Assembly: GCA_016876015.1 (NCBI GenBank) | Contig: VGOD01000005.1 | Span: 2,950-66,949 of the forward strand | DNA: 64,000 nucleotides | From: Chloroflexota bacterium | GTDB lineage: Bacteria > Chloroflexota > Anaerolineae > CG2-30-64-16 | Reading direction: 5' to 3' | Shown: positions 22,600 to 63,740 of the stretch, piece by piece | Layout of the letters: every line of letters starts with the position of its first letter | Position numbering within the stretch: position 1 is the stretch's first letter | Translations under genes and position numbers: made by a program | The notes under the pieces: model-generated | What the model saw: only the letters and a program-made list of their open reading frames with translations | The model's database searches: none | Told to the model about the DNA's origin: nothing

Positions 22600-22620
22600 G
22601 GTGTGCTGCTCCTTACTCTT

Positions 22621-23139: not shown

Positions 23140-23164
23140 GTGGGAATTTGCAAGGAAAGAAATG

Positions 23165-24256: not shown

Positions 24257-24261
24257 GGGGG

Positions 24262-24698: not shown

Positions 24699-24701
24699 GA
24701 G

Positions 24702-25190
24702 CTATGCAGGCAACACGGTGCGTTCGATCTCAGCGATCAGAAACGGCAGGTTGGGGCGGGTGAAGCTCAGTTCCGGCGCGGGGATGCGGTGGTGTTTGAT
24801 ATCTGGCGGAATGTGCTTGTGATGCGGGTCGGTGCTGGCCAGCGTCCGATCATGGGGGTGCGGGAAGGAGTCGTACCAGTAGAGTTTGTCCTTGTGGGTG
24901 TAACTTGCCGGGCAGTACTGGACAGCGGGGGGGAAGTCGGGCGCATCCGGTGTGGCGTGCGGCCGAGAAACTTCGTAGCCGTAGCCTTCGATCAGGCCCA
25001 GCTCGAAGTTGAGAAACTCCTGCACGCAGAGGATGATGGCGTGATCGAACAGGATCAGCCCCTCAACCCGGCCAAACAGGGCGCCAGAGGGCACGTACAC
25101 CAGCGTAGAGCGGCGGATGCTGGCGTGGCGGGCGGGAAACGAGTAGATAAACGCCTGGTACGCCGCTGGCGATGAAAGCGGGTCAGGCAT
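24702..25190 (-). CDS. TumE-like (DUF6516) putative toxin, second copy
   Basis: KLYWYDSFPHPHDRTLASTDPHHKHIPPDIKHHRIPAP. Probable start is the Met at 25190. Confidence 0.5.
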   Translation of the reverse strand: MPDPLSSPAAYQAFIYSFPARHASIRRSTLVYVPSGALFGRVEGLILFDHAIILCVQEFLNFELGLIEGYGYEVSRPHATPDAPDFPPAVQYCPASYTHKDKLYWYDSFPHPHDRTLASTDPHHKHIPPDIKHHRIPAPELSFTRPNLPFLIAEIERTVLPA

Positions 25191-25461
25191 ACGCCAGTTC
25201 CAGATTGCTCTTGATCTGGATTGCGATCGGCTGCCGGCTGATGAGCTGCTGGTACTTCTCATCCAGGCTCAGCCAGGTCTTATACAGGGCCAGCCACTCG
25301 ATGAATTCCATGCGGTATTCGTCCAGCGCGTCGAACTCAGCCAGATCGCCGCGCAACATGGCGCCGTGAAAATCGTGGGATTTCACGCCGAATTTGACCT
25401 CGAAGCGGCCCAGAGCCGCTTCCAGCCGGCGAATGTCATTGAGCAGGTCATGGAGAGACAT
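25183..25461 (-). CDS. Partner (putative antitoxin) of the TumE-like gene
   Basis: ATG 25461 MSLHDLLNDIRRLEAALGRFEVKFGVKSHDF. 8-nt overlap with the toxin start. Confidence 0.4.
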   Translation of the reverse strand: MSLHDLLNDIRRLEAALGRFEVKFGVKSHDFHGAMLRGDLAEFDALDEYRMEFIEWLALYKTWLSLDEKYQQLISRQPIAIQIKSNLELAYA

Positions 25462-25487
25462 GATACAGCATCTCGCTTTCTGTAGCG

Positions 25488-25516
25488 ATTCTAGCACAGG
25501 TCAGATATGCCGTCAA
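25488..25516 (-). promoter_or_regulatory. Promoter of the second TumE-like operon
   Basis: Minus strand: TTGACG (25516-25511), 17 nt, TAGAAT (25493-25488), 27 nt before ATG 25461. Confidence 0.5.
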
Positions 25517-25559
25517 TGACAAACTCATCATCTGCCGGCCCGCGTCGGTCGCGGCGAAT

Positions 25560-25689
25560 GAACTCCGCGCACATTCATCGCGCCATCGGCCACAAAACGT
25601 GGTATACTGTCGTTGTTGCGCAATCGCCCTGCGCCGTTCACGCGGGCGTTGACAATCGAATCCCACACCCAGGCAAGGAGGCTCATTCC
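25560..25689 (+). promoter_or_regulatory. Conserved TFL leader (copy L8)
   Basis: Near-identical to L5/L7. TGGTATACT at 25600-25608. Confidence 0.55.
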
Positions 25690-25761
25690 ATGGACACGCA
25701 GAAGAATCTCTTACCGATTATGCTTATTTCCGGGCATCACTGGACAAATGACGTTTACTGA
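25690..25761 (+). pseudogene. TFL family copy 8: only the first ~6 codons remain
   Basis: ATG 25690 MDTQKNL, then unrelated LPIMLISGHHWTNDVY*. Followed by IS debris. Confidence 0.55.
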
Positions 25762-25811
25762 GATATCCTGGGGTTGCTACAGGATCACAGTGACTCAAGG
25801 AGCCCCTTTCC

Positions 25812-49517: not shown

Positions 49518-51776
49518 ATGTTCCGCAGCCTCTTGGCCCGATGCCTGCTCATTACGATTTGTCTGCTGGCGCTTCTGCCGGTTCATGCTGCCCGCGCCGA
49601 TGAAGGCGTCTGGACGACTACCACAATCGCCTCTCTAGGCCCCCGCAGCCTGGCGATCAACCCAGAGAACCCGGGCATCGTGTATGCGTTGGCGTCGCAG
49701 TTGTTGGTCAGTCGCGACGGCGGCGCTGCGTGGGCGGTGGCGCCTGAAAGTCAGGCTGGCATCACACAACTGGTCTTCGATCCGTTGACGCCGGCCATCA
49801 TGTATGCTGTCGCCAACGGTCAACTGTTGAAACGCACCAGCGCCAGCCAGCCTTGGGCCCCGGTCGCGCCCGGTGTGTTGCAAGGCGTAACGAGCGTGAC
49901 GGTCAACCCGACCAATCCCAATCAGTTGTGGGTCGTCACCGGAACAGGCCTCTTTCGCTCCAACGATGCCGGCGTTTCCTGGGCCAGCGGTAAAGTGCCG
50001 GCGACCGGTCAGATAACTGCCTTTGCTTTGGGTCGGCCTGATCCAAAGCGCCTCTACGTGTGGAGTTCCGGTCAAGGTTTTTTCTACAGCCAGGATGATG
50101 GTGCAAGCTGGGTCAGGACCGGCAAAGGACTCGAAGGCAAAGGTGACCTAGAGATACTCCAGGTGGACGGTGCGACGGCCGGAGCTCTATATGCCCAGGT
50201 CAGGGGCGTGCTTCTGGCGTCTTCAGACCACGGCGCGAATTGGGCGCCGGTCACGCCGGCTGACCGCAACTACTACTCTAGCAATTTGTTGTGGACAACT
50301 GGCGACGGAGGCACCCTCTACACGACCAACGGCGCCATACTACATCGCAGCCGCGACCGCGGCGCAAGCTGGCAGGCCCTCCAACCGCCCAATTTCCGCA
50401 ACGTCGCTGCGCTGTTCGTGGATCCCAGAAGCCCCGCGGTATTATACGCGCTGGCCGATGGCACAGTGCTGAAGAGTTTCGATGCCGGCGCCAACTGGAC
50501 GCCGCCGCCAAAGCCCAGTCCTCAAATCATTGCTGCCCATCCGGCCGATCCGGCCATCCTGTTCGCGAATGGCGGCGGAGCCTTTCCTCAGGGGGCTTTG
50601 CGCAGTGGGGATGGCGGAGAAACGTGGGCGCGAATGACAGGCTGGCCTGAAAACCTGACATGGAGCGTAAGATACTTCACCCCCGGCAACCCGAATCGTA
50701 TGCTCGCCGGCGCCGGCAACGCGCTGCTGGTAAGCGCCGACTCAGGGCAGAGTTGGCAATCCACCGGAATGCCTACCACAGGCGCGCCACGCGCAATCGC
50801 CACGCAGCCGGGCAATGACGCCGTAATAATGGTCTCACTCGGCCAGGTGATCTTGCGCAGCGATAACAGCGGCGCGGCCTGGGCGTCGTCGCAGTTACCC
50901 AACAATGTGGCAGTCAACGCCTTGTGGATCGCGCCCGACAACGCGCGCCGCGTTCTGGCGGCCACGAATGCCGGCATCTACCGATCGGAAGACGGCGGCG
51001 CCACCTGGCAAATCGTGACGGGTTTGCCCCAGGGGAACTACGCACAACTGTGGCCTGGCGTTCAACCCGGGCAAGTCTACACCAACGGCGACAGAGGCGT
51101 GGCGGTCAGCGACGACGGCGGTCAACGCTGGAGCAACCAGGGCATCAGCCTCTCACCGGACAGATACCTCCAGGTGTGGCCCGATTGGCGCGACCCTGGC
51201 GTGCTGTACACGGTATTCCAGAACAGGGCATACGTCAGCCCCAATCGCGGACAGCATTGGGTACCCCTGGGGTCAGCCTTGCCGCGCCAGGTGCGTACCC
51301 TGGCGGTTGATGGCGCGACACCCCGCCACCTGTACATCAGCGACGACGCGCTCAACCTGTGGCGGTTCACGCTGCCGGCCATTCCACCCACACCCACCGC
51401 GACGCCGACGCTCACTCCAACTGCGACGCGCACGCCCTTGCCGACCCCGACCGCGACGCCCACGGCCACCTATACGCCTACCCCGCGGCCGCAGGCCAAG
51501 GTAATCGTGCTGACACCGCCGACGCCACTGCCCGTTTCGACGCAAAGTGGCTCCTCCAGCGGAGGCCCCGGCCTGCTGCCGATCCTCTTGGGCGGTGGCC
51601 TTATCATCGTTCTCGGGGCTGGCGCGTTCCTGTGGTTCCGCAGGCGTTCGGCAGTGACCCCGGTGGCGCCGCCGTCAGCCACGACGCATGTTGCATCCGT
51701 GTTCTGCCCGCATTGCGGTCAACCTAACCCCGGTGGAGGGCGTTTCTGCATGTCCTGTGGTAAGTCGTTAGTCTGA
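49518..51776 (+). CDS. Signal peptide - Asp-box (BNR) beta-propellers - PT linker - TM - C-terminal zinc ribbon protein
   Basis: MFRSLLARCLLITICLLALLPVHAARA. At least 11 S-x-D-x-G-x-x-W boxes (SRDGGAAW ... SDDGGQRW). PTPTATPTLTPTATRTPLPTPTATPTATYTPTP. TM LLPILLGGGLIIVLGAGAFLWF. FCPHCGQPNPGGGRFCMSCG. Confidence 0.75.
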   Translation: MFRSLLARCLLITICLLALLPVHAARADEGVWTTTTIASLGPRSLAINPENPGIVYALASQLLVSRDGGAAWAVAPESQAGITQLVFDPLTPAIMYAVANGQLLKRTSASQPWAPVAPGVLQGVTSVTVNPTNPNQLWVVTGTGLFRSNDAGVSWASGKVPATGQITAFALGRPDPKRLYVWSSGQGFFYSQDDGASWVRTGKGLEGKGDLEILQVDGATAGALYAQVRGVLLASSDHGANWAPVTPADRNYYSSNLLWTTGDGGTLYTTNGAILHRSRDRGASWQALQPPNFRNVAALFVDPRSPAVLYALADGTVLKSFDAGANWTPPPKPSPQIIAAHPADPAILFANGGGAFPQGALRSGDGGETWARMTGWPENLTWSVRYFTPGNPNRMLAGAGNALLVSADSGQSWQSTGMPTTGAPRAIATQPGNDAVIMVSLGQVILRSDNSGAAWASSQLPNNVAVNALWIAPDNARRVLAATNAGIYRSEDGGATWQIVTGLPQGNYAQLWPGVQPGQVYTNGDRGVAVSDDGGQRWSNQGISLSPDRYLQVWPDWRDPGVLYTVFQNRAYVSPNRGQHWVPLGSALPRQVRTLAVDGATPRHLYISDDALNLWRFTLPAIPPTPTATPTLTPTATRTPLPTPTATPTATYTPTPRPQAKVIVLTPPTPLPVSTQSGSSSGGPGLLPILLGGGLIIVLGAGAFLWFRRRSAVTPVAPPSATTHVASVFCPHCGQPNPGGGRFCMSCGKSLV

Positions 51777-51798
51777 TGATGATCTATCTGCCAGGAGA

Positions 51799-52353
51799 TT
51801 GATGATGACGCGATTCCTTCACAAAAGGGCTGGCTCAACCCGCATCGGAGCGGTCTTGGCGCTGTTTGTCGTGGCTGCCCTGCTCAGCGCATGTGGCGCC
51901 ATCCTGGAGACCGATCTCACCATCTATGCCGATGAGCGGTATGTCACCACGATGACGATCACGGCGCCGGCCGAGACGATCGCGATGATCGGCGGTCCGG
52001 CGGCCATGAAGTCGCAACTGGATCAGTGGGCGGCGGAGGCTAAGGCGCAGGGAGCGCAGGCCAAATGGTACCAGGGCAAAGCCAAACAGGCCGGCAATAC
52101 CGTCTACGTGCTCGAGATGAGCGGAAAGGGCTTCCAGTCCAAACTTATCCAGGGTACCTTTCGCCTGACCTGGGTGGATTACCAGGGACGCAAGGCGGTC
52201 AAATTCGAGATGTCGCCGCAGTCGCTCTCCAGCGGCATGGCGCTGGGAACCATCACGCTTCACGCTGGCGAGGTGCTATCCAGCAACGGCAGGAAGATCG
52301 GCAATGACGCTGTCCGCTGGGACAATCCCTCAGCAACATGCAAGCTATCGTGA
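51799..52353 (+). CDS. Lipoprotein, unknown function
   Basis: Lipobox ALFVVAALLSAC. 184 aa. Confidence 0.55.
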   Translation: MMMTRFLHKRAGSTRIGAVLALFVVAALLSACGAILETDLTIYADERYVTTMTITAPAETIAMIGGPAAMKSQLDQWAAEAKAQGAQAKWYQGKAKQAGNTVYVLEMSGKGFQSKLIQGTFRLTWVDYQGRKAVKFEMSPQSLSSGMALGTITLHAGEVLSSNGRKIGNDAVRWDNPSATCKLS

Positions 52354-52580
52354 TTCCCAAGGGGCAAACGAGCGCTCTGCTGATCGTGGCGATCCTGATC
52401 GTGCTGCTGATCCTGGCGGCCGGCGGCTATTTCGCCTATCGCCGCGGCTATCTGCGGACAAGTAGCGCGGCTGTTCCTGCGCCCGTCTCATCGAGCGGTT
52501 TCTGTCCCCACTGCGGACAGCCAACCCAGGCCGGAGCGCGCTTCTGTATGAGTTGTGGCAAGGAGATCCCGCCGCGCTGA
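52338..52580 (+). CDS. Small TM protein with C-terminal zinc ribbon
   Basis: TM ALLIVAILIVLLILAAGGYFAY, then RRGYLR and FCPHCGQPTQAGARFCMSCG. Confidence 0.55.
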   Translation: MQAIVIPKGQTSALLIVAILIVLLILAAGGYFAYRRGYLRTSSAAVPAPVSSSGFCPHCGQPTQAGARFCMSCGKEIPPR

Positions 52581-52589
52581 TGGCGGGTA

Positions 52590-52620
52590 GACCCTAAAGG
52601 TCTGCGAGACCTTTAGGGTC
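52590..52620 (+). terminator. Perfect 13-bp-stem hairpin (attenuator/terminator-like, weak U-tract)
   Basis: gaccctaaaggtc (52590-52602), tgcga, gacctttagggtc (52608-52620), followed by tct. Confidence 0.4.
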
Positions 52621-52658
52621 TCTGAGTGGATCCGACCTATCAGAAAGGAGTCACGACT

Positions 52659-53609
52659 ATGGCCTGTCCCAAGTGTGGCGTCCCCGACCCCGGCCCAGGG
52701 CTATTCTGCATGTCCTGCGGCTTCAAGCTGCCGGCATCGCCGGTCACGACTGCACCACCGGCAACCAGACCGCTGTCTGCGCCCGCAGCCGCGGCGCCGC
52801 TCGGCCCACCGGGCCCGGCCGCCGGTGTTCGGCCGGCAGCCATGCCCAGCCCTGCACAGCCAGTCTCGGCTCCCGCCGTTGGTCAGATGGGGAGCATGGG
52901 CACTGTGCCGGTCAGCATTTGGGGGCCGTTTGCGGGCTATGGCACACGCGGCCGGCACGTGTCGTGGCTGATCAACGACCAGGGCGACCGCGCCGACGCC
53001 TTACGCGATGCAGCCACCGCGCGCTTCGAGCGCCGAGAGATCCCGCGGGCCACCGTCCAGCGGATGACCCTGCTGCGCCAGGGCATCCTCGTGGACAGCC
53101 GTCCCTACTTCCTCATCCGCCGCGGCCTGGCGACCGCCGGACTCTATATCGCACGGTTTGGGCAGGATCTCTACGTCTCGCAGGTCACTTACTTCAAGGG
53201 GCCAATCAGCAGCATACGCGTCCTGCTCGTTGCGTTGATGGCGCTTTTCATCATCGTCTACCCACCGATATACAACAACGCCCTGAGCAGCGTCAACCTT
53301 AATCTGCTGGGAGGCTCGGTCTCGGGTCTCGACAGCCTCATGACCCTGACTTGTTGTCTTGGCCCTATCTATCTGCTGGACTATCTTGCGTTGGGCCTGT
53401 TAGTCTTGTTCAGCGCCTACAAATGGCTGACGGAAAAAGACCTGCTGGCCGCGCTGCGCGTGCCGCCGAACGAATTCGACACCGACGACATCGTCGCCCT
53501 GGAGAAGTCAGTCGAACAGACGGTGCGTGAAGCGCTGGATGTGGTAGGCATCGAGCAGCGGCTGATGCCTCAAGCAGCCGAGTACGGCATGCGTCGCCGT
53601 CTGATCTGA
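52659..53609 (+). CDS. Zinc ribbon - Pro-rich linker - globular region - polytopic membrane protein; upstream partner of the ATPase
   Basis: ATG 52659 MACPKCGVPDPGPGLFCMSCG. SD aaaggag. TM segments VLLVALMALFIIVYPP and LGPIYLLDYLALGLLVLFSAY. Ends 8 nt before ATG 53618. Confidence 0.6.
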   Translation: MACPKCGVPDPGPGLFCMSCGFKLPASPVTTAPPATRPLSAPAAAAPLGPPGPAAGVRPAAMPSPAQPVSAPAVGQMGSMGTVPVSIWGPFAGYGTRGRHVSWLINDQGDRADALRDAATARFERREIPRATVQRMTLLRQGILVDSRPYFLIRRGLATAGLYIARFGQDLYVSQVTYFKGPISSIRVLLVALMALFIIVYPPIYNNALSSVNLNLLGGSVSGLDSLMTLTCCLGPIYLLDYLALGLLVLFSAYKWLTEKDLLAALRVPPNEFDTDDIVALEKSVEQTVREALDVVGIEQRLMPQAAEYGMRRRLI

Positions 53610-53617
53610 CCCTGCCC

Positions 53618-56374
53618 ATGACTGCAACGCAGACTTACCCCGATCGAGGGTGTGAGACCAGCGGTCGCAACCTGGCGCCGCTGCACAGCTTTGGCGCGCC
53701 CCCGCGCAGCGGCGAGATCGTCGTGCAGCGCACCCTGCTGGGGCTTCAACTGCCCTATCTGCCGGATTTTCTGGCCGACCACACGCTGGTCGGCCAGAAC
53801 GACAGTGAGCGCTTGGCCGAGCTGTTGGAGCGCCAGGTGCAGTTCGTGGCTAACCTCTGGAAATGGCAGAGCGCCGCCTTCAGCCTGCGCTTCATCTACC
53901 GGCCGGAGCAGGCCGGCATCCAGGTCGCGCTGCTGGCGCGCATCCTCAGCCGGCCCGAGTCGGCGGCGATGGCGGCCGAGCAGTTGGGCGCCGATCTGAT
54001 GCGTCTGGCCCAAACTTTCGGCCTGACGGTGCGCCAGGTCGCCACGCCGGCCGACCTGGCCGGCCTGCGCATGCCGGTGCCCAATCCGTCCATCGTCGAG
54101 GTGCGCCAGCGCGAGGAGGTGGTGAGCTTCCCCTGGGCGCAGGGCGACGCCTACGTCGTCTATCCCTACTGGCAGCCGGCGGGCGCTTTTCTGCAGCCAT
54201 GCGAGGCCCTGCTGCGTCTCAGTGCGCCATGCGTCGTCAACCTGCACCTGGAGCCGACCAGCCTGGGCGAGAACGAGTATCGGGCCCTGGTCAACGCCGC
54301 CGCCACCGCCCAGACGGCCGCCGATTGGCAGCGCAGCGCGCACAGTATCGAATACAGCGGTCGCTGGGCCGATCCCCAGGCCGCGGCCGTGGCGCGTGTT
54401 TACGCGGCGCAATTGCGTCGCCTGGCGCAGCCATTCGTCATGGCAGCGCAGGTCGCCAGCAGCGACCGTTTCGCGGCCATGAGCATTGCACAATCCCTTG
54501 GCGCTGCTTTCACCGCACGGCCCATGGGCAGGGCAGACGATGAACTGATTTCCAGCTTTGACATCGTCTATGCAGGCACTGACGCCGACGCTCAAGCCGC
54601 CGCGCGGACGTTGAATCACCTGATCCTGACGCCGTGGGGCCGCAGCCAGGCCGAAGAAAGCCCCGACCTGATCCGGCTCCGCTATCTGGCCGACGCGCGC
54701 GGCGCGGCTGCGCTGTTCCGCTTCCCCATCGCCGTGCGCGGCGGCGTGCCGGGCGTCGAGGTGCGCCAGCCGATGCCAGATTTCGAGCCGGGCGGCCGGC
54801 GGGCGAACGCCAGGCCCGACGAGCTGAACCTGGGCAGCTTCCAGCGCGGCGGCGCGGTCACACTGCGACTGAAAGACCTCTCTCGCCACGGCCTGATCGC
54901 CGGGCTGCCAGGCAGCGGCAAGACCAACACCTGCCTGTACCTGCTTAGCCAACTGCACGAGCGCGGCGTCCCGTTCCTGGTAATCGAGCCGGCCAAGACC
55001 GAGTATCGCGGGCTGGTCCGCCAGCCGGGGTTCGAGGATCTGCTGGTCTTCACCCTGGGCGACGAAACCACTGCGCCCTTCCGACTCAATCCCTTCGAGC
55101 TGCTGCCCGGCGTGCGGCTGGAGGTGCACCTCGAGGCGCTCAACGTTGCCATCAATGCGGCCATGCCCCAGTTCGGCGTGCTGCCATCCATCATCGAAGA
55201 GGCGTTGGAGGCAGCTTACACGAGCCACAGCTGGCGGTTGAGTGATCGCGGCGGCGAAGGGGAGCCGAAACTCTTCCCCACCATGGCCGACTTCTGCCGC
55301 CAGGCCGTGCAGGCGATCGAGGGCCGCGGCTATCGCGGGGAGCTGCACGACAACATCCAGGCCGCGGTCAAAGGACGGATCGGCAGCCTGCTGCGCGGCA
55401 GCAAGGGCAGGATGTTCAACTGCCGGCGCTCGTTGCCGTTCGAGCTCCTGTTCGACCGGCCGGCCGTGCTGGAGCTGGACTCGCTCAGCGACGACGTCAA
55501 GGCGCTGACCATGATGTTCCTGCTGATCCTGTTGCGCGAGCACCGCCAGGGTCAGGCCCGTCGCGCCGGCGAACTATCCGCAGGCTTCCGGCATCTCCTG
55601 CTAATCGAGGAGGCCCACCGCATCCTGGAGAACGTCGCCGCAGTCGGCAACACCGAGGTCGCGGCGGATACGCGCGCCAAGTCGGTGCGGGCCATGACCG
55701 ACTTCCTGGTCGAAATGCGCGCCTACGGCCAGGGAGTGCTGATCGCCGAGCAAAGCCCGGAGAAACTCGCCCCGGACGCGGTGCGCAACACCAACCTCAA
55801 GATCGGCCACATGCTCCCCGGCCGCCAGGATCGCGAGGCGCTGGCCGCCGCGATGATCATGGACCAGGCGCAGGAACAGTTCATGGGCAAGCTGCGCGTG
55901 GGCCAGGCAGCGGTATTCATGACCGGCCTGGAAAAAGCGACCTTCATGACCGTGCCGGACTACAAGGGCGGCGTCGGGTTCGCCGACTTCCTGCCTGACG
56001 CAGCCGTCAAAGGCCACATGGCGAGGTTCTACGAGGCGAATCGTCTGGCCCTCTTGCCGTTCGACGGCTGCCGATTCTGCGGCGAGCCGTGTGAACATCG
56101 AGATGCTATCGAGCCGATAACCCGACGCAAGGAAACGGCTCAACGGTTCCAGACGGCGCTCACCGCCTTCGACGAACGACCCGAGCCGGCCCACTGGCCC
56201 GCCAACTGGCAGGAGGTCGCGGCCGTTTGCGGCGATGCGGCGGCTCAGGCCGGGCGACCGGATCACCAGGAAGCCGCCTATTGTTACCTGGCGCACGAGA
56301 TTGACTTCCCGTTCACCGAGCACATGCGCCGCGCGTTCGTGCGCGCGGTCGAGGCGTTGCCTGCAAGCGGATGA
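53618..56374 (+). CDS. HerA/VirB4/FtsK-superfamily P-loop ATPase with ~430-aa N-terminal domain of unknown function
   Basis: Walker A: GLPGSGKTNTCLYLL. FLVIEPAKTEYRGL (compare HerA/DUF87 D-P-x-G-E-Y). Walker B: HLLLIEEAHRIL. VLIAEQSPEKL. C-terminal CRFCGEPCEH. Confidence 0.7.
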   Translation: MTATQTYPDRGCETSGRNLAPLHSFGAPPRSGEIVVQRTLLGLQLPYLPDFLADHTLVGQNDSERLAELLERQVQFVANLWKWQSAAFSLRFIYRPEQAGIQVALLARILSRPESAAMAAEQLGADLMRLAQTFGLTVRQVATPADLAGLRMPVPNPSIVEVRQREEVVSFPWAQGDAYVVYPYWQPAGAFLQPCEALLRLSAPCVVNLHLEPTSLGENEYRALVNAAATAQTAADWQRSAHSIEYSGRWADPQAAAVARVYAAQLRRLAQPFVMAAQVASSDRFAAMSIAQSLGAAFTARPMGRADDELISSFDIVYAGTDADAQAAARTLNHLILTPWGRSQAEESPDLIRLRYLADARGAAALFRFPIAVRGGVPGVEVRQPMPDFEPGGRRANARPDELNLGSFQRGGAVTLRLKDLSRHGLIAGLPGSGKTNTCLYLLSQLHERGVPFLVIEPAKTEYRGLVRQPGFEDLLVFTLGDETTAPFRLNPFELLPGVRLEVHLEALNVAINAAMPQFGVLPSIIEEALEAAYTSHSWRLSDRGGEGEPKLFPTMADFCRQAVQAIEGRGYRGELHDNIQAAVKGRIGSLLRGSKGRMFNCRRSLPFELLFDRPAVLELDSLSDDVKALTMMFLLILLREHRQGQARRAGELSAGFRHLLLIEEAHRILENVAAVGNTEVAADTRAKSVRAMTDFLVEMRAYGQGVLIAEQSPEKLAPDAVRNTNLKIGHMLPGRQDREALAAAMIMDQAQEQFMGKLRVGQAAVFMTGLEKATFMTVPDYKGGVGFADFLPDAAVKGHMARFYEANRLALLPFDGCRFCGEPCEHRDAIEPITRRKETAQRFQTALTAFDERPEPAHWPANWQEVAAVCGDAAAQAGRPDHQEAAYCYLAHEIDFPFTEHMRRAFVRAVEALPASG
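56299..56374 (+). repeat. Direct repeat DR1 (functional 3' end of the ATPase gene)
   Basis: gattgacttcccgttcaccgagcacatgcgccgcgcgttcgtgcgcgcggtcgaggcgttgcctgcaagcggatga. Repeated at 57501-57659. Confidence 0.75.
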
Positions 56375-56470
56375 TGAGCTACGCGATCCGGGCGATCCAG
56401 GGGGCAGCTGACGCGGCGTGGGGAGCCATGACAGAGGCGGTACGCTCAGTGTGACGGAGTGAAACCGGCG

Positions 56471-56896
56471 CTAAACGCCGGCCAGGGCATGTTGGAGCAC
56501 GCGGCGGGTCAGGCTGGGGCGCTCGTCGGTGGAGGTGGAGGGCAAGGCTTTATCCTTGAGCTCATCTTCCAGGATAAAGTGCGCGTAGGCCCAACTGAAC
56601 GCCTCGTGCAGCGGCACGTCGCGCAGCCCGGCTTGCGGCACGTCGAATCGCTCACCGGCCAGCAGCAATCGCAGCCCCCAGATGACGGCTGGGTAGGTCT
56701 TGTGGAGGTTATAGGCAATCCAGGCAAACGGGCGGTCCTCGCCGTCGCGATAATCTGCCATCAGGTCGAGAATGGATGTATCGCCGTACCCGCGGCTGTG
56801 AATGCTTGTGTCGGTTCGCTGGCGGGTTGGGTCCACGGCGATAGCCTCCACCATACCGGGTTCTTGAAAAAGGAGGTGTAGTTCTCGTCTAGCCAT
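56471..56896 (-). CDS. Hypothetical protein (second gene of the inserted cassette)
   Basis: 141-aa ORF, 8 nt downstream of 56905..57390 on the minus strand. No recognisable motif. Confidence 0.45.
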   Translation of the reverse strand: MARRELHLLFQEPGMVEAIAVDPTRQRTDTSIHSRGYGDTSILDLMADYRDGEDRPFAWIAYNLHKTYPAVIWGLRLLLAGERFDVPQAGLRDVPLHEAFSWAYAHFILEDELKDKALPSTSTDERPSLTRRVLQHALAGV

Positions 56897-56904
56897 ACTT
56901 CACC

Positions 56905-57390
56905 TTACAAGCCAAACTCGCGCGACCGCTTGCCCGGAGCAATGTACCACACCGCGATCGTCTCAGCATCGCGCGCGCCTTTGACCTTGCCGCTTTCCTG
57001 TGAATGAAAGTTGTATAGAAACTTGACACCTTGCCGGAACTTGATGACTGCTGCAACCAACTCGTACTCATGCCCAGGCTGAAGATAGATGCGCTTGTAG
57101 TAAATCAACGTGTCGTCCGGGCTGGCGTAGTCGTAGACCACGATGTCAGGATCTGCCAGAACGTCAGGAAGGCGTGCCAACTCGTCTATCAGGTCAAAAC
57201 GCGATTTGCGCGCCAGCGAATCGTGTGCGTAGGCCAGACCCTCTGCTGTGACGTATACCGGTTCGCCGTGCACGTCGGTGACAACATACGCGACACGCTG
57301 AACGCGTTCGCGGCCTTTGTTGTCCACGACAACGATGGACGCTTCAGCGGCCGCAGGCCGGCGCACGGTTGGTTTCTGTGTGGCTGGCAT
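56905..57390 (-). CDS. Hypothetical protein, possibly Barnase/EndoU/RelE-like (PBECR-type) nuclease
   Basis: LIDELARLPDVLADPDIVVYDYASPDDTLIYYKRIYLQPGHEYELVAAVIKF resembles the core of phage-associated PBECR nuclease domains. Weak call. Confidence 0.4.
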   Translation of the reverse strand: MPATQKPTVRRPAAAEASIVVVDNKGRERVQRVAYVVTDVHGEPVYVTAEGLAYAHDSLARKSRFDLIDELARLPDVLADPDIVVYDYASPDDTLIYYKRIYLQPGHEYELVAAVIKFRQGVKFLYNFHSQESGKVKGARDAETIAVWYIAPGKRSREFGL

Positions 57391-57395
57391 ATCTT

Positions 57396-57424
57396 ATCAT
57401 AGGCGCAATTCGGATTTCTGTCAA
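57396..57424 (-). promoter_or_regulatory. Promoter of the inserted cassette (near-leaderless)
   Basis: Minus strand: TTGACA (57424-57419), 17 nt (gaaatccgaattgcgcc), TATGAT (57401-57396), 5 nt, ATG 57390. Confidence 0.5.
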
Positions 57425-57500
57425 GACGCATATCGGAGAAACGCCCGTGCCACGCGACATATCTGACATCGAAGCCGTGGAGCACACTATCAAGCTGGGC

Positions 57501-57659
57501 GATTGACTTCCCGTTCATCGAACATATACTGATCGGAAATGAATTCAGTGCATTAAAGTCAAGCCGAGGCCTCGACGCCAATGCACTCATTTGATTTCCG
57601 AGCAGTATATACGCCGCGCGTTCGTGCGCGCGGTTGAGGCATTGCCTACAAACGGATAA
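57501..57659 (+). repeat. Direct repeat DR2 (displaced old 3' end of the ATPase gene, itself split by a small MITE)
   Basis: gattgacttcccgttcatcgaaca + 85-bp insert + tacgccgcgcgttcgtgcgcgcggttgaggcattgcctacaaacggataa. Aligns to 56299-56374. Confidence 0.75.
57525..57609. mobile_element. 85-bp palindromic MITE-like insert
   Basis: tatactgatcggaaatgaattcagtgcatt ... aatgcactcatttgatttccgagcagtata, with central palindrome cgaggcctcg. Confidence 0.55.
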
Positions 57660-57683
57660 CCTCAGCCATGAAAGGAGTTTCCC

Positions 57684-58265
57684 ATGAAATGCCCGAATTG
57701 TGGCGCACCTGATGCTGGACCTGGGTCGTTCTGTATGGCCTGTGGCGCAAAACTATCAACGGCAACCACGGCAGTATCTCCACAGGCGCGGACGCCTTCA
57801 TCGGCGCCGAGCGGAGAAGCGACGTCTCCCCCAGGCGCTCCACAGCCAATAGATACGCACTCTAGCCGTTGGTGGCTCGGGGAAACTCAAGACGGTGTCG
57901 CGCCAGTTGTTCTGCCGACGGCGATCACTACTACCTCAACTGGTCCATTGAAAACAATCCATCGCATCGCCATCGGCTCCGTCTTCAAAGTTACCTTTGT
58001 AATCTACGCTCTACTCCTCGGTCTCTTCGGCTGTCTCTTCATGGTGCTCCCTGGGCTGTTCGGCGCTAGCCTACTGGGTGGTTTGGCCGGACGGGATAGT
58101 GACCTGGCCTTGCTGGGCGGCAGTTTCATCGGAATCCTAATCTCCTACGTCTTGCTCGTCGCGCTTGGCGCGTTCCTGCAAGGCATCTTCACGGTGATCG
58201 CCGCGTTCATCTACAACCTCGCCGCGCGTTGGGTCGGCGGCATCCAGGTTGAATTGCAGGAGTAG
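57684..58265 (+). CDS. Zinc ribbon - Pro/Ser linker - 3-4 TM membrane protein
   Basis: MKCPNCGAPDAGPGSFCMACG. Hydrophobic C-terminal half (VFKVTFVIYALLLGLFGCLFMVLPGLFG...). Confidence 0.65.
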   Translation: MKCPNCGAPDAGPGSFCMACGAKLSTATTAVSPQARTPSSAPSGEATSPPGAPQPIDTHSSRWWLGETQDGVAPVVLPTAITTTSTGPLKTIHRIAIGSVFKVTFVIYALLLGLFGCLFMVLPGLFGASLLGGLAGRDSDLALLGGSFIGILISYVLLVALGAFLQGIFTVIAAFIYNLAARWVGGIQVELQE

Positions 58266-58272
58266 CAGAGCG

Positions 58273-58482
58273 ATGCCGATAGAGCAACTGGCCGTCGAAG
58301 CCCCCATCAGCGCCGCCAGGCTGACGGCGAATACGATCAAGGACATCTGGTCGGTGATGGACGCCGCCGCGGAGAAGCCCGCGCCGACGCAGTATCTCGG
58401 CGCGAAGGCGATCCAGGCCATTCAGGGCGTAACCGACCAGGCGCAAAAAACTGTCAATGCCGCGGTCAGCGCGGCGTCGTAA
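58273..58482 (+). CDS. Small hypothetical protein
   Basis: ATG 58273 MPIEQLAVEAPISAARL, 69 aa. Tightly packed between neighbours. Confidence 0.35.
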   Translation: MPIEQLAVEAPISAARLTANTIKDIWSVMDAAAEKPAPTQYLGAKAIQAIQGVTDQAQKTVNAAVSAAS

Positions 58483-58494
58483 ATAGGAGGTCTC

Positions 58495-58872
58495 ATGGCA
58501 TCCGACACGAAAGACGCCCAGGACGCCCAACGTCCCAGCGATACCGGTCAGACGCAACCGCGCCTGAACCGGCCACAAACCGAAGCAGGAAGACGCGCAA
58601 TGCAGGGAGGGGACAGCGACCTCGCGGGCCACCAGGAGCGTCTGAATCAGGTCAAGACCGAAGCCTCGGCTCGCGACGCAGCGGAACGCGCGGCGTTGGA
58701 GCGCAAGAAAGCTGAGGAATCCCCCGATGCTGCCAGCCAGACCGATCGCCGACACGCTATTGGCGACGCAGGGTTGGCGGAAAAAGTCGAGTCCGGCCCA
58801 GAAAAACGAGAGAAAGAAGTATTCACAGGCCCGCCGGAGGCACGCGAGGGCCATCGCAAACCAGAAGGATAA
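58495..58872 (+). CDS. Disordered Lys/Glu/Asp-rich protein sharing an N-terminal motif with 60188..60994
   Basis: MASDTKDAQDAQRPSD...EAGRRAMQGGDSD versus MPKDTQDSKAPRD...DKGRRAMQGAPDD. Confidence 0.45.
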   Translation: MASDTKDAQDAQRPSDTGQTQPRLNRPQTEAGRRAMQGGDSDLAGHQERLNQVKTEASARDAAERAALERKKAEESPDAASQTDRRHAIGDAGLAEKVESGPEKREKEVFTGPPEAREGHRKPEG

Positions 58873-58909
58873 CGGCTCCTTCGCCACACAAGCATCTCGA
58901 GAGGCGTAT

Positions 58910-60172
58910 ATGGCTACTTTTGCTCGTCGCTATGCACCCGCGTGCATCGTGGCGCTGCTGTTGTGGATCGGCGTCGGTTCAACTGTTTGGGCAGCGCCCG
59001 TTATTCCCACCTGGCGCGAACGCCTTTGGTGCGATGCGGCCGCTCAGAAACATAGAGGGTTGGAGTACTGCACCGCGGCGGCGGGTCAGGTGCATGTGGT
59101 TGTTGTGGATCTACAAAGTCCCGGCATCGGGCTGGAGTATGTCATCGCCGAGGGGCTGAACAAGACTGGCCAGTTCGGCGAATGTCAAGATGTGAACGTT
59201 CCGGCATACGGCCCCGTGCGCGGCGGATGCGCCGACAAAACCAACCCCGCCTATTATCCGGTGATGCCGTTGGATCGGGCTGTTGAGATCGGCAAGAGCC
59301 GCACTACGAACCTGGCGGTAGTAATCAACAGCGACTATGGCGCCGGCGACCAGGGTAAACCGGGCGAGTTTCGAGGGCACGGCCCCGAAGGGCTGACGGT
59401 TGTGCGCGGTACCCGCCTGGATGGCCCGACCAACGGCGACAAAGATATCAACGCCATCAACCGTCCCTGGCTGGCTGTCAGCCGTGATGCGCCTCTACGA
59501 GCCGAACTCAGCCAACTTGCGCAAGACGACGGTGGCAAGGCCGCCTGGGTCTATACCGGCGTGGGCGGCGGGCCGTGGTTAATCCGCAGCGGTGTCATTC
59601 AGACTGAAGACATCCAGACCTGCCGGAACTGCCCCGGCTCTTGCTACGAAGGCGCGGTTCAAACCGCAGTCGGACTCTCCCAGGATCACCGTTGGCTGTT
59701 TCTCGTGATAGATTCCCGCAAGGGCAAGCTGATGGACACGGCGCAGTTCATGCGCGAGCAACTGGCCGCCTGGGATGCTATCAAGTTCGACGGCGGCGGC
59801 TCCTCGCAACTGTGGTACAGCGGCCAGTTCATCGCTCGCGGCGATGGCCGCCAGCTTTCACAATACCTGGCCGTCATTGCGCCGCCCGGTTCCGGTATTC
59901 AGGATACCGTTCCCTCGCCTTCTCTGACCGATCAGTTGAAGGCGCTGATCGAGCGCCTGCGCCAGACCGCCGAGCGCCAGCTTGACAAGTGGCGCCAGCA
60001 AGCCGAGGAGGCGGTGAGGCGGTGGGTGGCGGAGCTGGAACGGCAAGCGTCCGAGTGGCTCCAGCGGGAACTGGAGCGCCAGGTACAGAGCCTGGTTGAG
60101 CAGGTCTGCGGCAGCGCGCTGGCACCGATGGCGTTGGTTGTCTGGCTGACAACGCGGCGTCGCAGAAGATGA
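58910..60172 (+). CDS. Phosphodiester glycosidase (DUF2233/NAGPA-like) with signal peptide, C-terminal coiled coil and TM anchor
   Basis: ATG 58910 MATFARRYAPACIVALLLWIGVGSTVWA. VVVVDLQSPGI, AVVINSDYG, GGGPWLIRSG, RTAVGLSQDHRWLFLVIDSRKG, AIKFDGGGSSQLW. C-terminal ALAPMALVVWLTTRRRRR. Confidence 0.6.
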   Translation: MATFARRYAPACIVALLLWIGVGSTVWAAPVIPTWRERLWCDAAAQKHRGLEYCTAAAGQVHVVVVDLQSPGIGLEYVIAEGLNKTGQFGECQDVNVPAYGPVRGGCADKTNPAYYPVMPLDRAVEIGKSRTTNLAVVINSDYGAGDQGKPGEFRGHGPEGLTVVRGTRLDGPTNGDKDINAINRPWLAVSRDAPLRAELSQLAQDDGGKAAWVYTGVGGGPWLIRSGVIQTEDIQTCRNCPGSCYEGAVQTAVGLSQDHRWLFLVIDSRKGKLMDTAQFMREQLAAWDAIKFDGGGSSQLWYSGQFIARGDGRQLSQYLAVIAPPGSGIQDTVPSPSLTDQLKALIERLRQTAERQLDKWRQQAEEAVRRWVAELERQASEWLQRELERQVQSLVEQVCGSALAPMALVVWLTTRRRRR

Positions 60173-60187
60173 TCGTGAGGAAGTACG

Positions 60188-60994
60188 ATGCCGAAAGACA
60201 CGCAAGATTCGAAGGCTCCCCGTGATATCGCCGAAGCGAAAGCGCCAGCCGAGGCTGCGCCGCCCAAGCTGAGCGATAAGGGGCGACGCGCCATGCAAGG
60301 GGCTCCAGACGACGCGGCAGAGAAGACGCTCGATCGGGGCGAGATGCGCAGCGTGACGGCACAGGCCGACCGCGAGGTGTCGCCACCGAAGTCCAAGCGT
60401 CCGACAGAAAACCAGATCACAGCCTATCAACACAAAATGCAGGGGCAAATTGCAGAGGAGTCGCTCAACTCAATCGGCGCTGAATCGTTCAATGACTTCA
60501 AGCCTAACGCTCCGGTGTACGACGCCCTGCTGGCTGAGAAGGGGGGATTCGAGGCGGCCTCGGTGAAAACGCACATGCCTTCGCAGAAACATCCTGACGC
60601 CTATCTGGCACATTATGCGCACGATCTGCGCGTCGCAACGGGCGCAACGGAGGCCAAGAGCGGAAAATACGCAGGCATGACTGGGCCGACCTTTGCCGCC
60701 GAGGCGCTGAACAGCCTCGACGATCTGCCAGACGCCCTCAAGAACATCCCGCCCAAGCAGATGGAGACGCGGCTTAAGCAAAACGCCAGTGTGCGTATTC
60801 CTGCGGACCACGTTGGACGCGCCCGCACCTATGTATTTAAGCAGGCGACAGCCCGTCCTGTGCAGTATGGCTTGCCGGCCGGTGCCGGCGCCGACGAGGT
60901 ACAGCAACTCGCTGACCGGATCAAACCGTTGCCGGTAACATCCGACCAAATCAAGGCCGCCGTGGGCAGGCGGCGCCAGGCGCTGAGTGGGTGA
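60188..60994 (+). CDS. Hypothetical protein: disordered N-terminus plus globular domain, possibly PD-(D/E)xK-like
   Basis: GQIAEESLNSIGAESFNDFKPNAPVYDALLAEKGGFEAASVKTH has the spacing of G..E / D / E..K nuclease-fold motifs. Weak call. Confidence 0.4.
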   Translation: MPKDTQDSKAPRDIAEAKAPAEAAPPKLSDKGRRAMQGAPDDAAEKTLDRGEMRSVTAQADREVSPPKSKRPTENQITAYQHKMQGQIAEESLNSIGAESFNDFKPNAPVYDALLAEKGGFEAASVKTHMPSQKHPDAYLAHYAHDLRVATGATEAKSGKYAGMTGPTFAAEALNSLDDLPDALKNIPPKQMETRLKQNASVRIPADHVGRARTYVFKQATARPVQYGLPAGAGADEVQQLADRIKPLPVTSDQIKAAVGRRRQALSG

Positions 60995-61022
60995 GAGCGC
61001 GTGGCCGGTCCCGCAAAATACA

Positions 61023-62339
61023 ATGGCTGATCAACTACTCTTCTGTCCCCACTGCGGCATGCAGCAACTCAAAACAGACGCGCGCTTCTGCCATGTCTGC
61101 GGGCAGCCGATCCCAGCGGTATCAGCGCACGCGGCCGAGCCTATTGTGCTCGCGCCCAAGCGACCGCGGCGGCTGAGCGCGTGGTGGCTGTTGCCCCTGC
61201 CCCTTGTGGGGGTTATGGCGTTGGTTCTCCTGGCCTGGGAACCAGCGCGCAGTCGGGTTGCTGACCTCCTGGCGGGCATCCGGCCGGCCGCGACCGCACC
61301 AGCCAGTCGTGAGCCAGACACTTCCGCACGAGCAGCATCCGGCGACGCGACCAAAGGCCCGACTCAGGGCGTCTCCGTGGCACCGACGGAGACGCCTGCC
61401 GCATCACCGACCGTCGCTGTTCCGCCGAGTGCCACCCCGCAGCCTTCGGTAACGTCGCTTCCAACCGCGACACCGCCGCCGACGGCAACGCTCGTGCCAA
61501 CGGCAACGCCCTTTACCGCCGTTACCAAACCTGAAATCGTTCACACCGGCTCCCTGGGGCTGATCGCTTTTTACTCAGAACGCGATGGAAACGCCGAGAT
61601 CTACATCATGGATGCCAACGGGGGGAATCAACGACGCTTGACTTCCGACCCCGCAAGCGACCTGTATCCGGCGCTTTCCCCCGATGGGCGGCGCATCGCG
61701 TTTGTTTCGCAACGCGATGGTAACTCCGAAATCTACCTGGTGGATTCGGACGGCAGCGATCTTGTCCGCATCACCAACGACGCGGCAGAGGACCGCTTGC
61801 CGGTCTGGTCGCCTGATGGTAAGCGGATCGCGTTTTCATCAGATCGCTCGGGCAATGCGAACCTGTATGTCATGGATGCCAACGGCCAGAACCTGGTTCA
61901 ACTAACATCTGGCCCAGAGCGAGACGGCCATCCAACCTGGTCCCCTGATGGTGCCCGGCTGGCGTTCAACACCGGCGACGAGCCGGCGTCATGGGAGATC
62001 GAGACGATCTCTGCTGCCGATGGGGCGCGCCGACGTCTGACGGAAAATGGTGTGATCGATTGGTCGCCCAATTGGGCCACGAATGGCAGCAAGATCTTGT
62101 TTCTCTCACGACGGTCTACGCAAAACGCCATCTACGTCGTGGCGCCCTACGGCGGCGAGGAACGCAAGGTGTTCGATGGCTTGGAGTCCATCTGGGGCGC
62201 CGTTTGGTCTCCGGATGGTCAACACATTGCGTTTACATCCAACGAGAGCGGGCGCGATGAGATCTACGTGATTCGCTCCGATGGCAGCGATCTCCGACAG
62301 CTAACCTCCGAAGGAGGCGCCTACCCGAGTTGGAGGTAG
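61023..62339 (+). CDS. Zinc ribbon - TM - PT linker - TolB-like (PD40) beta-propeller protein
   Basis: MADQLLFCPHCGMQQLKTDARFCHVCG. TM WWLLPLPLVGVMALVLLAW. SPDGRRIAFVSQRDGNSEIYLVDSDGSDLVRITN and four or more similar PD40 repeats. Confidence 0.8.
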   Translation: MADQLLFCPHCGMQQLKTDARFCHVCGQPIPAVSAHAAEPIVLAPKRPRRLSAWWLLPLPLVGVMALVLLAWEPARSRVADLLAGIRPAATAPASREPDTSARAASGDATKGPTQGVSVAPTETPAASPTVAVPPSATPQPSVTSLPTATPPPTATLVPTATPFTAVTKPEIVHTGSLGLIAFYSERDGNAEIYIMDANGGNQRRLTSDPASDLYPALSPDGRRIAFVSQRDGNSEIYLVDSDGSDLVRITNDAAEDRLPVWSPDGKRIAFSSDRSGNANLYVMDANGQNLVQLTSGPERDGHPTWSPDGARLAFNTGDEPASWEIETISAADGARRRLTENGVIDWSPNWATNGSKILFLSRRSTQNAIYVVAPYGGEERKVFDGLESIWGAVWSPDGQHIAFTSNESGRDEIYVIRSDGSDLRQLTSEGGAYPSWR

Positions 62340-62392
62340 TAGCGGGTAGCAATACGGAAGCGATACTCGCTCAGTGACGGCGAGGAGCATAG

Positions 62393-63740
62393 ATGACCGA
62401 TCAGAGCCTGTTCTGCCCCTACTGTGGGGCACAGCAATTCAAGACGGAGGCCCGGTTCTGCCATGTCTGTGGGCAGCCGATCCCACGACCACCGGTAGGG
62501 CAGACTGCCCCGCCTTCGCGAAGAGGGGGTCGGGGGGTGGGTTATTTGCTCTTGCCGCCCATCCTCGTCCTGCTGCTAGCCGCCGCAACCTTTGCCTGGC
62601 AGCGCGGGCTGTTGGGATTGTCCGCGCGCTCTGCGCGCGCGGACGCCTGCAGCGGTCTCTGGTGGGTCAGCCCGCGCGTTGACCACGCCAGGCCAGCCAG
62701 GCAGCACACGCGGTGCGGCATCACCGTCGGTCTCACCGATCGAACCAACGCAGGCCAGCCGTCCGACTCCGTTGCCGGAGACGCGATTGCCCGTTGCCAC
62801 CGCTGCCCCGCCGCCGAGCACGCAACCTCCCCCCGGTACGGCCACTTCGCCGCCGACAGCGACGCCACTTCCGACTTCAACGCCCACGGCGAAGGCGAGA
62901 CCGGCCACGCCTACCCCGATGGTAGGGAAAGTGATTTTCGGCAGCGATCGCAGCGGCTTTGCCCATGTCTTCACGGTGGATGGCAATGGCAACGGCCTGC
63001 GCGCCGTCACCGGCGGCAACGAGTACTTCTGGGATCCGGTCCTGAGCAACGATGGCGCGCAACTGGCGTTCACCTCGAAAGTAGGAGGCAACACGGAGAT
63101 CTTCGTCGCCTATCGCGATGGGGGGTCCCGTCGCGCCATCAGCAATCATCCGGCCGAAGATGATCATGCATCGTGGTTTCCCGGCAACACGGGTCTGGCG
63201 TTTGCCAGCCGTCGGGATGGCCCGTGGGAGATCTATCGCATGGCCGCGGATGGCTCGAACGTGCGGCGTCTGACCTTCAACGGCGGCGACAACCGCTTCG
63301 TAGTCGTGTCGCCCGATGGCAGCCGGATCGCCTATGTCGCCCAGGGTGGACCGCATCCCAACGTTCAACTCATGCTGATGAACGCCGACGGCAGCGATCC
63401 GCGTCCTCTATTGACCTACAACTCGCGCCGGCAGCGCGATGATCCAGGACGTTTCATTTATCGGCCCGACTGGTCGCCCGATGGCGCGCAACTTGCCTTC
63501 GGCGCGGACGACGACGATGATGGGCTGATCAGTGTACTGGTGATCGCCGTCGCGACCGGCCAGGCGCAGCGCCTGATCCAGGATGGCAACAGCCCTGCCT
63601 GGAGTCCTGATGGGCAGCGGCTGATCTACAAGCCGGCCGGCGACCGGCAAATCCTGTACGTCGCCGACATCAACGGCACCCCGCTCTACCAGTTGACCGG
63701 CTCCGACTACAACGCCTGGTCGCCGGACTGGGCGCGCTGA
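62393..63740 (+). pseudogene. Tandem paralog of 61023..62339, frameshifted between TM and linker
   Basis: MTDQSLFCPYCGAQQFKTEARFCHVCG plus TM are in the frame of 62393. The PT linker and PD40 repeats (SNDGAQLAFTSKVGGNTEIFVAY...) are in the frame of 62592..63740. The switch is near the GCGCGCGC tract 62621-62641. Confidence 0.6.

Follow-up and report, generated by a model that had tools for sequence, protein, structure and literature searches.

Within a 64,000-nt stretch of a Chloroflexota genome (contig VGOD01000005.1; referred to here as the window), we analyzed a block at positions 56375-57500 that lies between the gene for a HerA/FtsK-like P-loop ATPase (53618..56374, + strand, 918 amino acids) and a gene for a DUF3566/zinc-ribbon membrane protein (57684-58265, + strand). 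The block carries a cassette of two minus-strand genes, here called geneA (56905..57390, 161 amino acids) and geneB (56471..56896, 141 amino acids), and is bracketed by two direct copies of the ATPase gene 3' end. Based on comparison with related loci, we consider it probable, at roughly 60%, that the block is a horizontally acquired toxin-antitoxin (TA)-like operon that was inserted behind the ATPase gene by an illegitimate event, with duplication of the target. The evidence consists of the insertion and the matching empty site in relatives, stubs of genes from the home site of the cassette, discordant synonymous divergence, repeats of resident origin, purifying selection on the cassette genes and repeated loss of geneA.

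The window was compared with relatives, metagenome runs (X numbers) and fetched loci (L numbers). Orthologous loci come from HGW-Chloroflexi-1 (L006 = L015), Candidatus Amarolinea aalborgensis (L016), uncultured Anaerolineae/Anaerolineales (L017, L018), a metagenome-assembled genome of Ardenticatenaceae (L019) and Anaerolineae SSC4 (L020). L007-L010, L021 and L101 are metagenome contigs with the cassette, and the L006/7/8 clade is of the donor type. Eight lake-water metagenomes carry the window sequence almost identically. In L015/L006, L007, L017 and L020, the ATPase stop codon is followed directly by the DUF3566 gene, with a spacer of ~57-72 nt. The ATPase-end duplication was found in none of the orthologous loci examined (L006/L015, L016-L020 and L007). 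A preliminary description of this DNA, made from the sequence, had proposed that the ATPase gene would be followed by the gene at 57684 if the insert were removed. The relatives agree with that order; the distance, given as 25 nt, is 24 nt from the stop codon of the distal ATPase-end copy (57657-57659) to the DUF3566 start ATG (57684).

The two copies of the ATPase 3' end are located at 56299..56374 (copy A, + strand), which is the proximal one and includes the TGA stop, and at 57501..57659 (copy B, + strand), which is displaced distally, ends in a TAA stop and is split into 57501-57529 and 57613-57659 by a hairpin insert resembling a miniature inverted-repeat transposable element (MITE). A repeat search recovered them in two pieces, 56299-56325 with 57501-57527 (89%) and 56319-56372 with 57604-57657 (87%), whose spacings differ by 83 nt. 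When the 83-bp insert is removed, formal alignment of the copies reported initially gives 67/76 identical positions, gapless and in frame, with nine substitutions instead of the approximately eight first counted. The in-frame peptide ends are IDFPFTEHMRRAFVRAVEALPASG in copy A and IDFPFIEHIRRAFVRAVEALPTNG in copy B, each followed by the stop. The upstream boundary of the duplication is sharp (1/20 matches), and the next-best 76-mer within the window matches at 39/76 positions. Therefore, the duplication is real and far beyond chance. A duplication reaching ~25 nt further upstream was rejected, as ungapped identity there is at chance level.

All nine differences between the copies are GC to AT changes in copy B. 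At the informative sites, copy A has the state found in relatives and would represent the ancestral state of copy B. Copy A is thus the functional end, left unchanged, and copy B a pseudo-end in decay. The copies are each other's closest relatives and have derived states in common against all relatives, including three derived amino acid states (I, A and V) against L006/L007/L016/L017; copy A differs from the donor-clade ATPase end at 17/76 positions. The proximal end is therefore resident sequence and was not brought in by the donor. A promoter-like TTGACT-N16-TATACT sequence (10/12) is present at 57503-57530 on the + strand, directed at the DUF3566 gene, which the cassette separates from the ATPase operon. 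It arises from copy B substitutions together with the first bases of the MITE.

The home site of the cassette lies nearby. In L006, L007-L010, L021 and L101, the cassette is located antisense between two small genes, p77 and p125, two genes downstream of the ATPase and about 0.8-0.9 kb from the position of the window insertion. This p77|p125 junction is empty in L016, L017, L020 and the window, with the genes 12-25 nt apart; the intact resident p77 (58273-58482, + strand) and p125 (58495-58872, + strand) of the window follow the DUF3566 gene. Window positions 56383-57478 are 91% identical to L006 and 92-93% identical to L007-L010, whereas identity to L006/L007-type loci is only 78-80% in the ATPase gene, and the DUF3566/p77 segment reaches 61-72% (L015), with partial p77 matches to L007-L008 of up to 81%.

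Both ends of the block are remnants of former neighbours. After the ATPase stop, a remnant at 56375..56382 (+ strand; TGAGCTAC...), similar to the post-stop spacer of L007 (TGATGACTATCGCC), runs into the left junction and overlaps a GCGATCC microhomology with p77. The p77' stub (56380..56454, + strand) consists of the last 24 codons and the stop of a 68-amino-acid donor-type p77 (AIRAIQGAADAAWGAMTEAVRSV, then the stop) and is non-functional. It was aligned with L006/L007/L011, and shares 79-84% identity with relatives, compared with 56% (44/78 columns) with the window's own p77 end. On the other side, the p125' stub (57447..57491, + strand) contains the first 10-15 codons (VPRDISDIEA...) of a donor-type p125, is 90% identical over the first 21 nt in an alignment with L006/L009, and runs into the right junction. 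The left junction is located 8-12 nt past the ATPase stop, and a GCGATYC sequence shared with p77 overlaps it as a microhomology; the right junction directly adjoins codon -25 of the ATPase gene, where any microhomology is limited to CTGG(G)C. The cassette-type p77 C-terminus was also considered as a replacement end borne by the element and rejected, because it is simply the donor-clade allele.

L011-L014 represent a second escape, with home-site stubs at an unrelated locus, within the 3' end of a gene of the MFS type. These loci contain the promoter, geneB, a longer p77 stub and, preceding the -35 box, 18 nt from the home site. There, the sole direct repeat is 11 nt long, and the displaced original MFS end is on the promoter side. 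The block in the window holds only geneA and geneB, and neither protein is similar to a recombinase in Pfam, NCBIfam, PADLOC or PHROG searches, as had been noted at the outset. No transposase and no inverted repeats were found at the block ends. In the source population, the cassette occurs in a single copy, and the contigs of the eight metagenomes include neither an excised nor a cassette-less form, contigs being prone to drop rare variants.

Synonymous divergence (dS) was calculated by the Nei-Gojobori method. Between the window and L006, dS is 0.14 for geneA and 0.23 for geneB; geneB has a dS of 0.19 both between the window and L008 and between L006 and L008. For the last 900 nt of the ATPase gene, dS is 0.85 between the window and L015, 0.78 between the window and L007, and 0.30 between L015 and L007. 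A dS of 0.14-0.23 for the cassette against ~0.8 for the ATPase places the arrival of the cassette, from the L006/7/8 clade, well after the divergence of the host lineages. At 0.12 changes per site, the decay of copy B is similar in size to the synonymous divergence that the cassette shows per lineage, so that duplication and transfer were roughly contemporaneous. The ratios of nonsynonymous to synonymous divergence (dN/dS), 0.10-0.26 for geneB and 0.29 for geneA, show purifying selection on both genes.

The cassette genes belong to a family that is widespread in Chloroflexota (Anaerolineae, Caldilineae and Ardenticatenia). That both are real genes, as first predicted, is evident from their 65 (geneA) and 163 (geneB) homologue clusters. 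They are spaced 8 nt apart, and the pair is conserved across unrelated contexts. A predicted promoter (57396..57424, - strand) with the sequence TTGACA-N17-TATGAT matches the consensus at 11/12 positions. The geneA ATG follows 5 nt after the -10 box, which predicts a near-leaderless transcript, as originally described, and the same architecture is found upstream of the cassette in L002, L011, L049, L056, L060 and L074. A search for RNA-seq runs containing the cassette gave none. It had also been suggested that TA modules in a 9-25 kb island of the window use this type of promoter; the island does hold TA-type modules, but the exact pattern occurs nowhere else in the window.

geneA is a putative stand-alone, divergent RNase toxin of the PBECR/BECR fold. 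In Pfam it matches PBECR3 (E = 2e-5, 24.9 bits against a gathering score of 30) and PBECR2 (E = 5e-3, 17.6 bits against 27.1), and PBECR3 is matched by 27/36 members of the geneA family. Two stand-alone relatives score above gathering, P0204 (34.5 > 27.1) and P0221 (30.7 > 30), and another, P0232, is a fusion of Phage_Mu_F and PBECR. A profile search of 1.84 billion representatives recovered 51 clusters only, many of them fragments of 32-110 amino acids. The AlphaFold2 model of geneA has a predicted local distance difference test score (pLDDT) of 87.7. It contains two helices (residues 49-61 and 65-79, corresponding to pre-alpha and alpha) followed by a four-stranded sheet (beta1-4; residues 83-87, 94-103, 108-119 and 122-131), with extra N-terminal strands, and thus has the BECR core topology. 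PBECR domains have been described as pre-alpha plus alpha-beta1-4 with added N-terminal strands (bioRxiv 10.64898/2026.08.28.747851), and the same two-helix/four-strand topology applies to colicin-like and PBECR RNases of the BECR fold (PMC5512222; bioRxiv 10.64898/2026.08.28.747851). According to Iyer et al. 2017 (PMC5512222), the PBECR active site combines a His (or Arg) in the N-terminal helix with a Ser/Thr near the C-terminal side. The helix residue at position 56 of geneA is H in the window, R in most relatives and G/E/Q/T in some. The invariant residues of the family are S133, K62, K117, R119, Y126, N127 and Q131. Compared with BFVD, the model matches phage polyvalent/MuF-type proteins with template-modelling (TM) scores of ~0.47-0.50. 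Searches of the PDB by sequence and fold gave no significant match, and weak NTF2-like and CorA fold matches were dismissed as noise. No match to geneA was found by tblastn in phage and plasmid collections, and neither gene has a match in NCBIfam, PADLOC or PHROGs. The PBECR character first noticed in geneA is in line with the Pfam matches and the predicted topology.

geneB encodes a putative antitoxin or immunity protein that is well conserved across the family. Its AlphaFold2 model (pLDDT 81.6) has a beta-rich core, a disordered linker and a C-terminal helix. geneB and 36 relatives have no Pfam match, and PDB searches by sequence and fold gave none for geneB. More than 15 independent deletions or truncations of geneA were found in the family, and the promoter and an intact geneB were left each time. 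Loss of geneA beside an intact geneB is the pattern that would be expected of a toxin and its antidote. We infer that geneA is a putative RNase toxin and geneB its neutraliser. The cargo looks like a TA pair, as had been proposed, based on the PBECR-like geneA, the promoter and the repeated loss of geneA beside geneB.

A metagenome scan with the geneB alignment provided 80 further family loci, so that family loci are ascertained through geneB and not geneA. Flank repeats were searched in 500 nt on each side of the cassette and scored against shuffles. Significant locus-specific repeats are present at about 6/55 family loci (~11%), with ~50 others lacking them. In addition to the 76 nt of the ATPase 3' end in the window, the repeats comprise 43-53 nt at the end of a CHAT-domain gene (L001/L002), about 55 nt and 160 nt at the ends of membrane-anchor genes (L049 and L056, respectively), a significant locus-specific direct repeat of about 60 nt (L074), and two repeats in L060. 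The inner repeat of L060 is 103 nt long and covers an anchor-type gene end plus terminator; the outer one, of 396-430 nt, covers a whole MGMT-like gene. As a control, random positions in the same sequences reached the same score in 18/820 tests, of which three are cassette sites, and the remaining 15 (1.8% of positions) all fall in intragenic domain repeats or paralogue arrays. Flank duplications are enriched around the geneA-geneB cassette.

The duplicated targets share no common sequence, and the repeats range from 11 to 430 nt. The block termini also differ by locus, with p77/p125 stubs in the window, others in L011 and none in L002. A constantly convergent arrangement of cassette and duplicated host gene was rejected, since the two are codirectional in L049 and L056. 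In L060 (314-2637), the repeats are nested, with the 103-nt repeat (80%) inside the 396-430-nt repeat (91%), which suggests that the block may have moved with its old flanks and made a new, longer target duplication. L002 has, at 6930-7098, a palindrome of ~150 nt that resembles a MITE (GAGCGTTGCAGAA...TTCTGCAACGCTC). It is located between the stop codon of geneB and the end of the CHAT gene and is absent from the orthologous L001 site.

A similar arrangement is found on a larger scale elsewhere in the window. At 9400-25800, six to seven + strand paralogues of 312-363 amino acids, with conserved 5' 300-400 nt and a period of 2.1-2.4 kb, alternate with minus-strand two-gene modules. These include HNH endonuclease pairs (10912-11340, 15245-15700), a TumE toxin (13459-13842) and a PemK/MazF toxin (17477-17839). 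The array has the same geometry as the cassette, with antisense modules between repeats.

These data can be combined in a mechanism whose exact recombination pathway we infer from the sequences. Positions 56375-57500 would represent a self-contained operon, with its own strong promoter driving geneA and then geneB. A donor-type chunk, consisting of the cassette, the last 24 p77 codons and the first 10-15 p125 codons, would have been joined directly behind the ATPase stop in the window lineage. The joining was likely illegitimate, of the microhomology type, and not a site-specific integration. Two recipient breakpoints staggered by ~76 nt could have duplicated the ATPase 3' end, so that the proximal copy preserved the ATPase open reading frame while the distal copy decayed and later received the MITE. 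Across the family, a dedicated recombinase fits the variable length, target and orientation less well than illegitimate joining at staggered breaks, with host genes kept intact by selection.

Several points weigh against this interpretation. geneA falls below the Pfam gathering score for PBECR, and the position in the helix where His/Arg would be expected varies across its family (H/R/G/E/Q/T). Profile and fold searches found no recognisable DNA-binding or antitoxin domain in geneB. The asymmetry of geneA loss is partly a matter of ascertainment, because the loci were found through geneB. At four sites (the window, L001/L002, L049 and L056) the repeat corresponds to the 3' end of the neighbouring host gene, up to the stop codon, and such recurring gene-end duplications leave room for a more specific mechanism. 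Finally, a random illegitimate event would be unlikely to land as close as 0.9 kb to the homologous home site, which hints at a homology-assisted or intragenomic step.

An intragenomic rearrangement would account for a block within 1 kb of the home site, but we regard it as unlikely. Starting from the order ATPase-DUF3566-p77-cassette-p125, a tandem duplication from ATPase codon -25 to about p125 codon 12 would be followed by a microhomology deletion that strips the left copy of DUF3566 and of the 5' portion of p77, and then by loss of the cassette from the right copy. The right junction, where p125' meets the ATPase end, looks like a tandem-duplication join, and the left one looks like the outcome of a deletion that joined the post-stop spacer to p77 at GCGATYC. 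The DUF3566-p77 segment is also evidently exchanged among strains, L007 and L015 being only 66-80% identical there, compared with 95% in the flanks. However, three events are required, and the third is a precise loss of the right cassette that leaves an intact p77 of another allele (62% identical to the donor type). Furthermore, a cassette dS of 0.14-0.23 against ~0.8 for the ATPase still demands a prior horizontal import.

It is rather doubtful, though conceivable, that the geneA-geneB family is as a whole a recombinase-less mobile unit, which would move in arbitrary chunks, be joined illegitimately by host repair or replication, and generate long, variable target duplications, often of host gene 3' ends. 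These would allow precise excision and re-insertion by RecA, while the TA function would kill cells that have lost the cassette and so also protect the flanking repeats from collapse. If true, this reading would also explain the 9-25 kb array of paralogues and antisense TA modules.

The preliminary description had favoured a small non-autonomous integrative element, which is mobilised by an integrase in trans, inserts at the 3' ends of genes and brings a replacement end along, so that attL would rebuild the gene and attR would contain the displaced original end. Part of this stands, as there is an insertion at the gene 3' end, an empty site in relatives and an intact ATPase open reading frame. 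The gene-end repeats at the four sites named above are consistent with it, and so is the antisense geometry between co-oriented host genes that is common to the window, L006, L001/2 and L011. Site specificity and a replacement end carried by the element are not supported. The block has no recombinase, and its ends are stubs of earlier neighbours instead of conserved termini. Copy A is resident, being 17/76 positions away from the donor-clade end and equal to the ancestral state of copy B. The targets are unrelated, with repeats of 11-430 nt, and the orientation is inconstant, as in the codirectional L049 and L056. Taken together, we consider this model improbable.

Insertion-duplication by host RecA, in which a circular fragment carrying the ATPase end and the cassette undergoes a single homologous crossover within the 76 nt and the flanking repeats now permit RecA-dependent excision and re-integration, is likewise improbable: repeats of 43-430 nt at other loci are RecA-usable (L011 has only 11 nt) and two resident-lineage copies are expected with a conspecific donor, but such a donor must already have the block behind its ATPase, which moves the origin back one step, no cassette-less form is present among the near-identical contigs of the eight metagenomes (where rare variants drop out), and the sequence after the copy A stop differs from that after the copy B stop.

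The insert in copy B is a later arrival. The palindrome seen in the preliminary description is a hairpin with a fold energy of -37.5 kcal/mol (z = -5); its length, put at 85 bp, is 83 bp, made up of a 77-nt element (57530..57606, no strand assigned) and a 6-bp target duplication, ATATAC, at 57524-57529 and 57607-57612. In the eight lake-water metagenomes, the unitig depth of the element is 130-570x compared with 14-28x for its flanks, corresponding to ~10-20x multicopy in the source community, and several different flanks appear as loose ends. In X4 and X7, the main contig is of the element-free allele, which also occurs alongside the filled allele in X2, X3, X5 and X6. An independent contig, L102, has a 100% identical cassette and likewise no MITE. 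The 77-nt insert is a multicopy MITE that is active and came in later than the duplication. It is non-coding, has inverted-repeat ends and a target duplication, is present in many copies and is polymorphic for insertion. It thus resembles bacterial MITEs in its terminal inverted repeats, hairpin, 6-bp target duplication, lack of coding capacity, copy excess and presence/absence polymorphism. It differs in matching no Rfam family (a scan of 56200-57800 gave no match) and in being single-copy in the window; no second copy of the MITE or its arm was found in the 64-kb window or in 100 fetched loci.

The ATPase gene, whose 3' end served as the insertion target and was kept intact, has orthologues in six genomes with 63-79% amino acid identity. 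It matches HerA_C/DUF87 in Pfam, CedD (partially) in NCBIfam and mad8/HerA in PADLOC; the similarity to mad8, HerA and CedD is weak. The conserved core order in relatives is zinc-ribbon protein, ATPase, DUF3566, p77 and p125, with DUF3566 absent from that place in L016 and L018. The surrounding cluster (51700-62500 in the window, and L015-L020) is conserved and rich in N-terminal zinc-ribbon membrane proteins around the ATPase. A CPxCG...FCxxCG motif is shared by the window genes at 51704, 52502, 52664, 57689, 61023 and 62393, and the cluster also contains a PD40 propeller protein. Between L007 and L015, the ATPase is ~95% identical, DUF3566 and p77 only 66-80%, and geneB is back at 92-93%. 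The DUF3566-p77 segment (window equivalent 57684-58482) therefore looks like a possible hotspot of allelic replacement or diversifying selection. In run X1, a contig joins window position 56331 to 58327. It belongs to a low-depth diverged relative, with 17 mismatches in 112 nt, in which the ATPase end is followed directly by p77 without DUF3566, as in L016 and L018. Among the contigs of the eight metagenomes, this was the sole skip resembling an excision joint.

Our analysis provides insights into how such cassettes may spread. The candidate TA family adds a stand-alone PBECR-like putative RNase and its partner to the known repertoire and, to our knowledge, there is almost no experimental TA biology in Chloroflexota. 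The transfer is unusually legible, as the sequences reveal the donor context, the stubs, both junctions and the duplication and also allow a relative dating. The case shows a small addiction-type cassette hopping within and between genomes without a recombinase of its own. The flanking duplications and the TA-interleaved array suggest that such cassettes are linked to local repeat stability.

A number of known systems are comparable. The PBECR/MuF-associated RNase toxins (PF18810, PF18812; PMC5512222) share with geneA the PBECR2/3 matches, relatives that pass gathering, one MuF fusion, the predicted topology and an order in which the toxin gene comes first and its partner after. In contrast to these systems, geneA is stand-alone and chromosomal in Chloroflexota, is not part of a polyvalent protein, has no tblastn match in phages or plasmids, scores below gathering and does not conserve the helix His/Arg, and geneB belongs to no described immunity family. 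Toxin-first type II TA systems such as HigBA, with a RelE-like BECR-fold toxin, resemble the cassette in their two small adjacent genes (here spaced by 8 nt) under a promoter of their own, a putative RNase of the BECR fold, a patchy mobile distribution and orphan partners after toxin loss. The cassette differs from them in its larger proteins (161 and 141 amino acids) and in a geneB without a recognisable DNA-binding domain.

With regard to movement, integrase islands and prophages at gene or tRNA 3' ends also show a gene-end direct repeat, an intact gene and an empty site in relatives, but the present block has no integrase, its proximal copy is not element-borne, its termini are stubs, and the family has unrelated targets and variable repeats. 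Literature on double illegitimate recombination yielded nothing directly applicable. The minimal mobile elements of Neisseria are cassettes swapped by homologous recombination between conserved flanking genes. The p77|p125 cassette, present in L006, L007-10 and L101, absent in L016, L017, L020 and the window, and without a recombinase, resembles them, whereas the window insertion is at another junction, did not use flanking homology, and has a duplication and stubs. Phage morons are autonomous promoter-gene-terminator units located between two genes. The cassette is similarly a self-contained unit with a consensus promoter between co-oriented, operon-like host genes; it differs in being chromosomal, in having two genes in antisense orientation, and in its long target duplication. 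Set beside these systems, the block is not a new kind of mobile element, but a tidy example of cassette movement.

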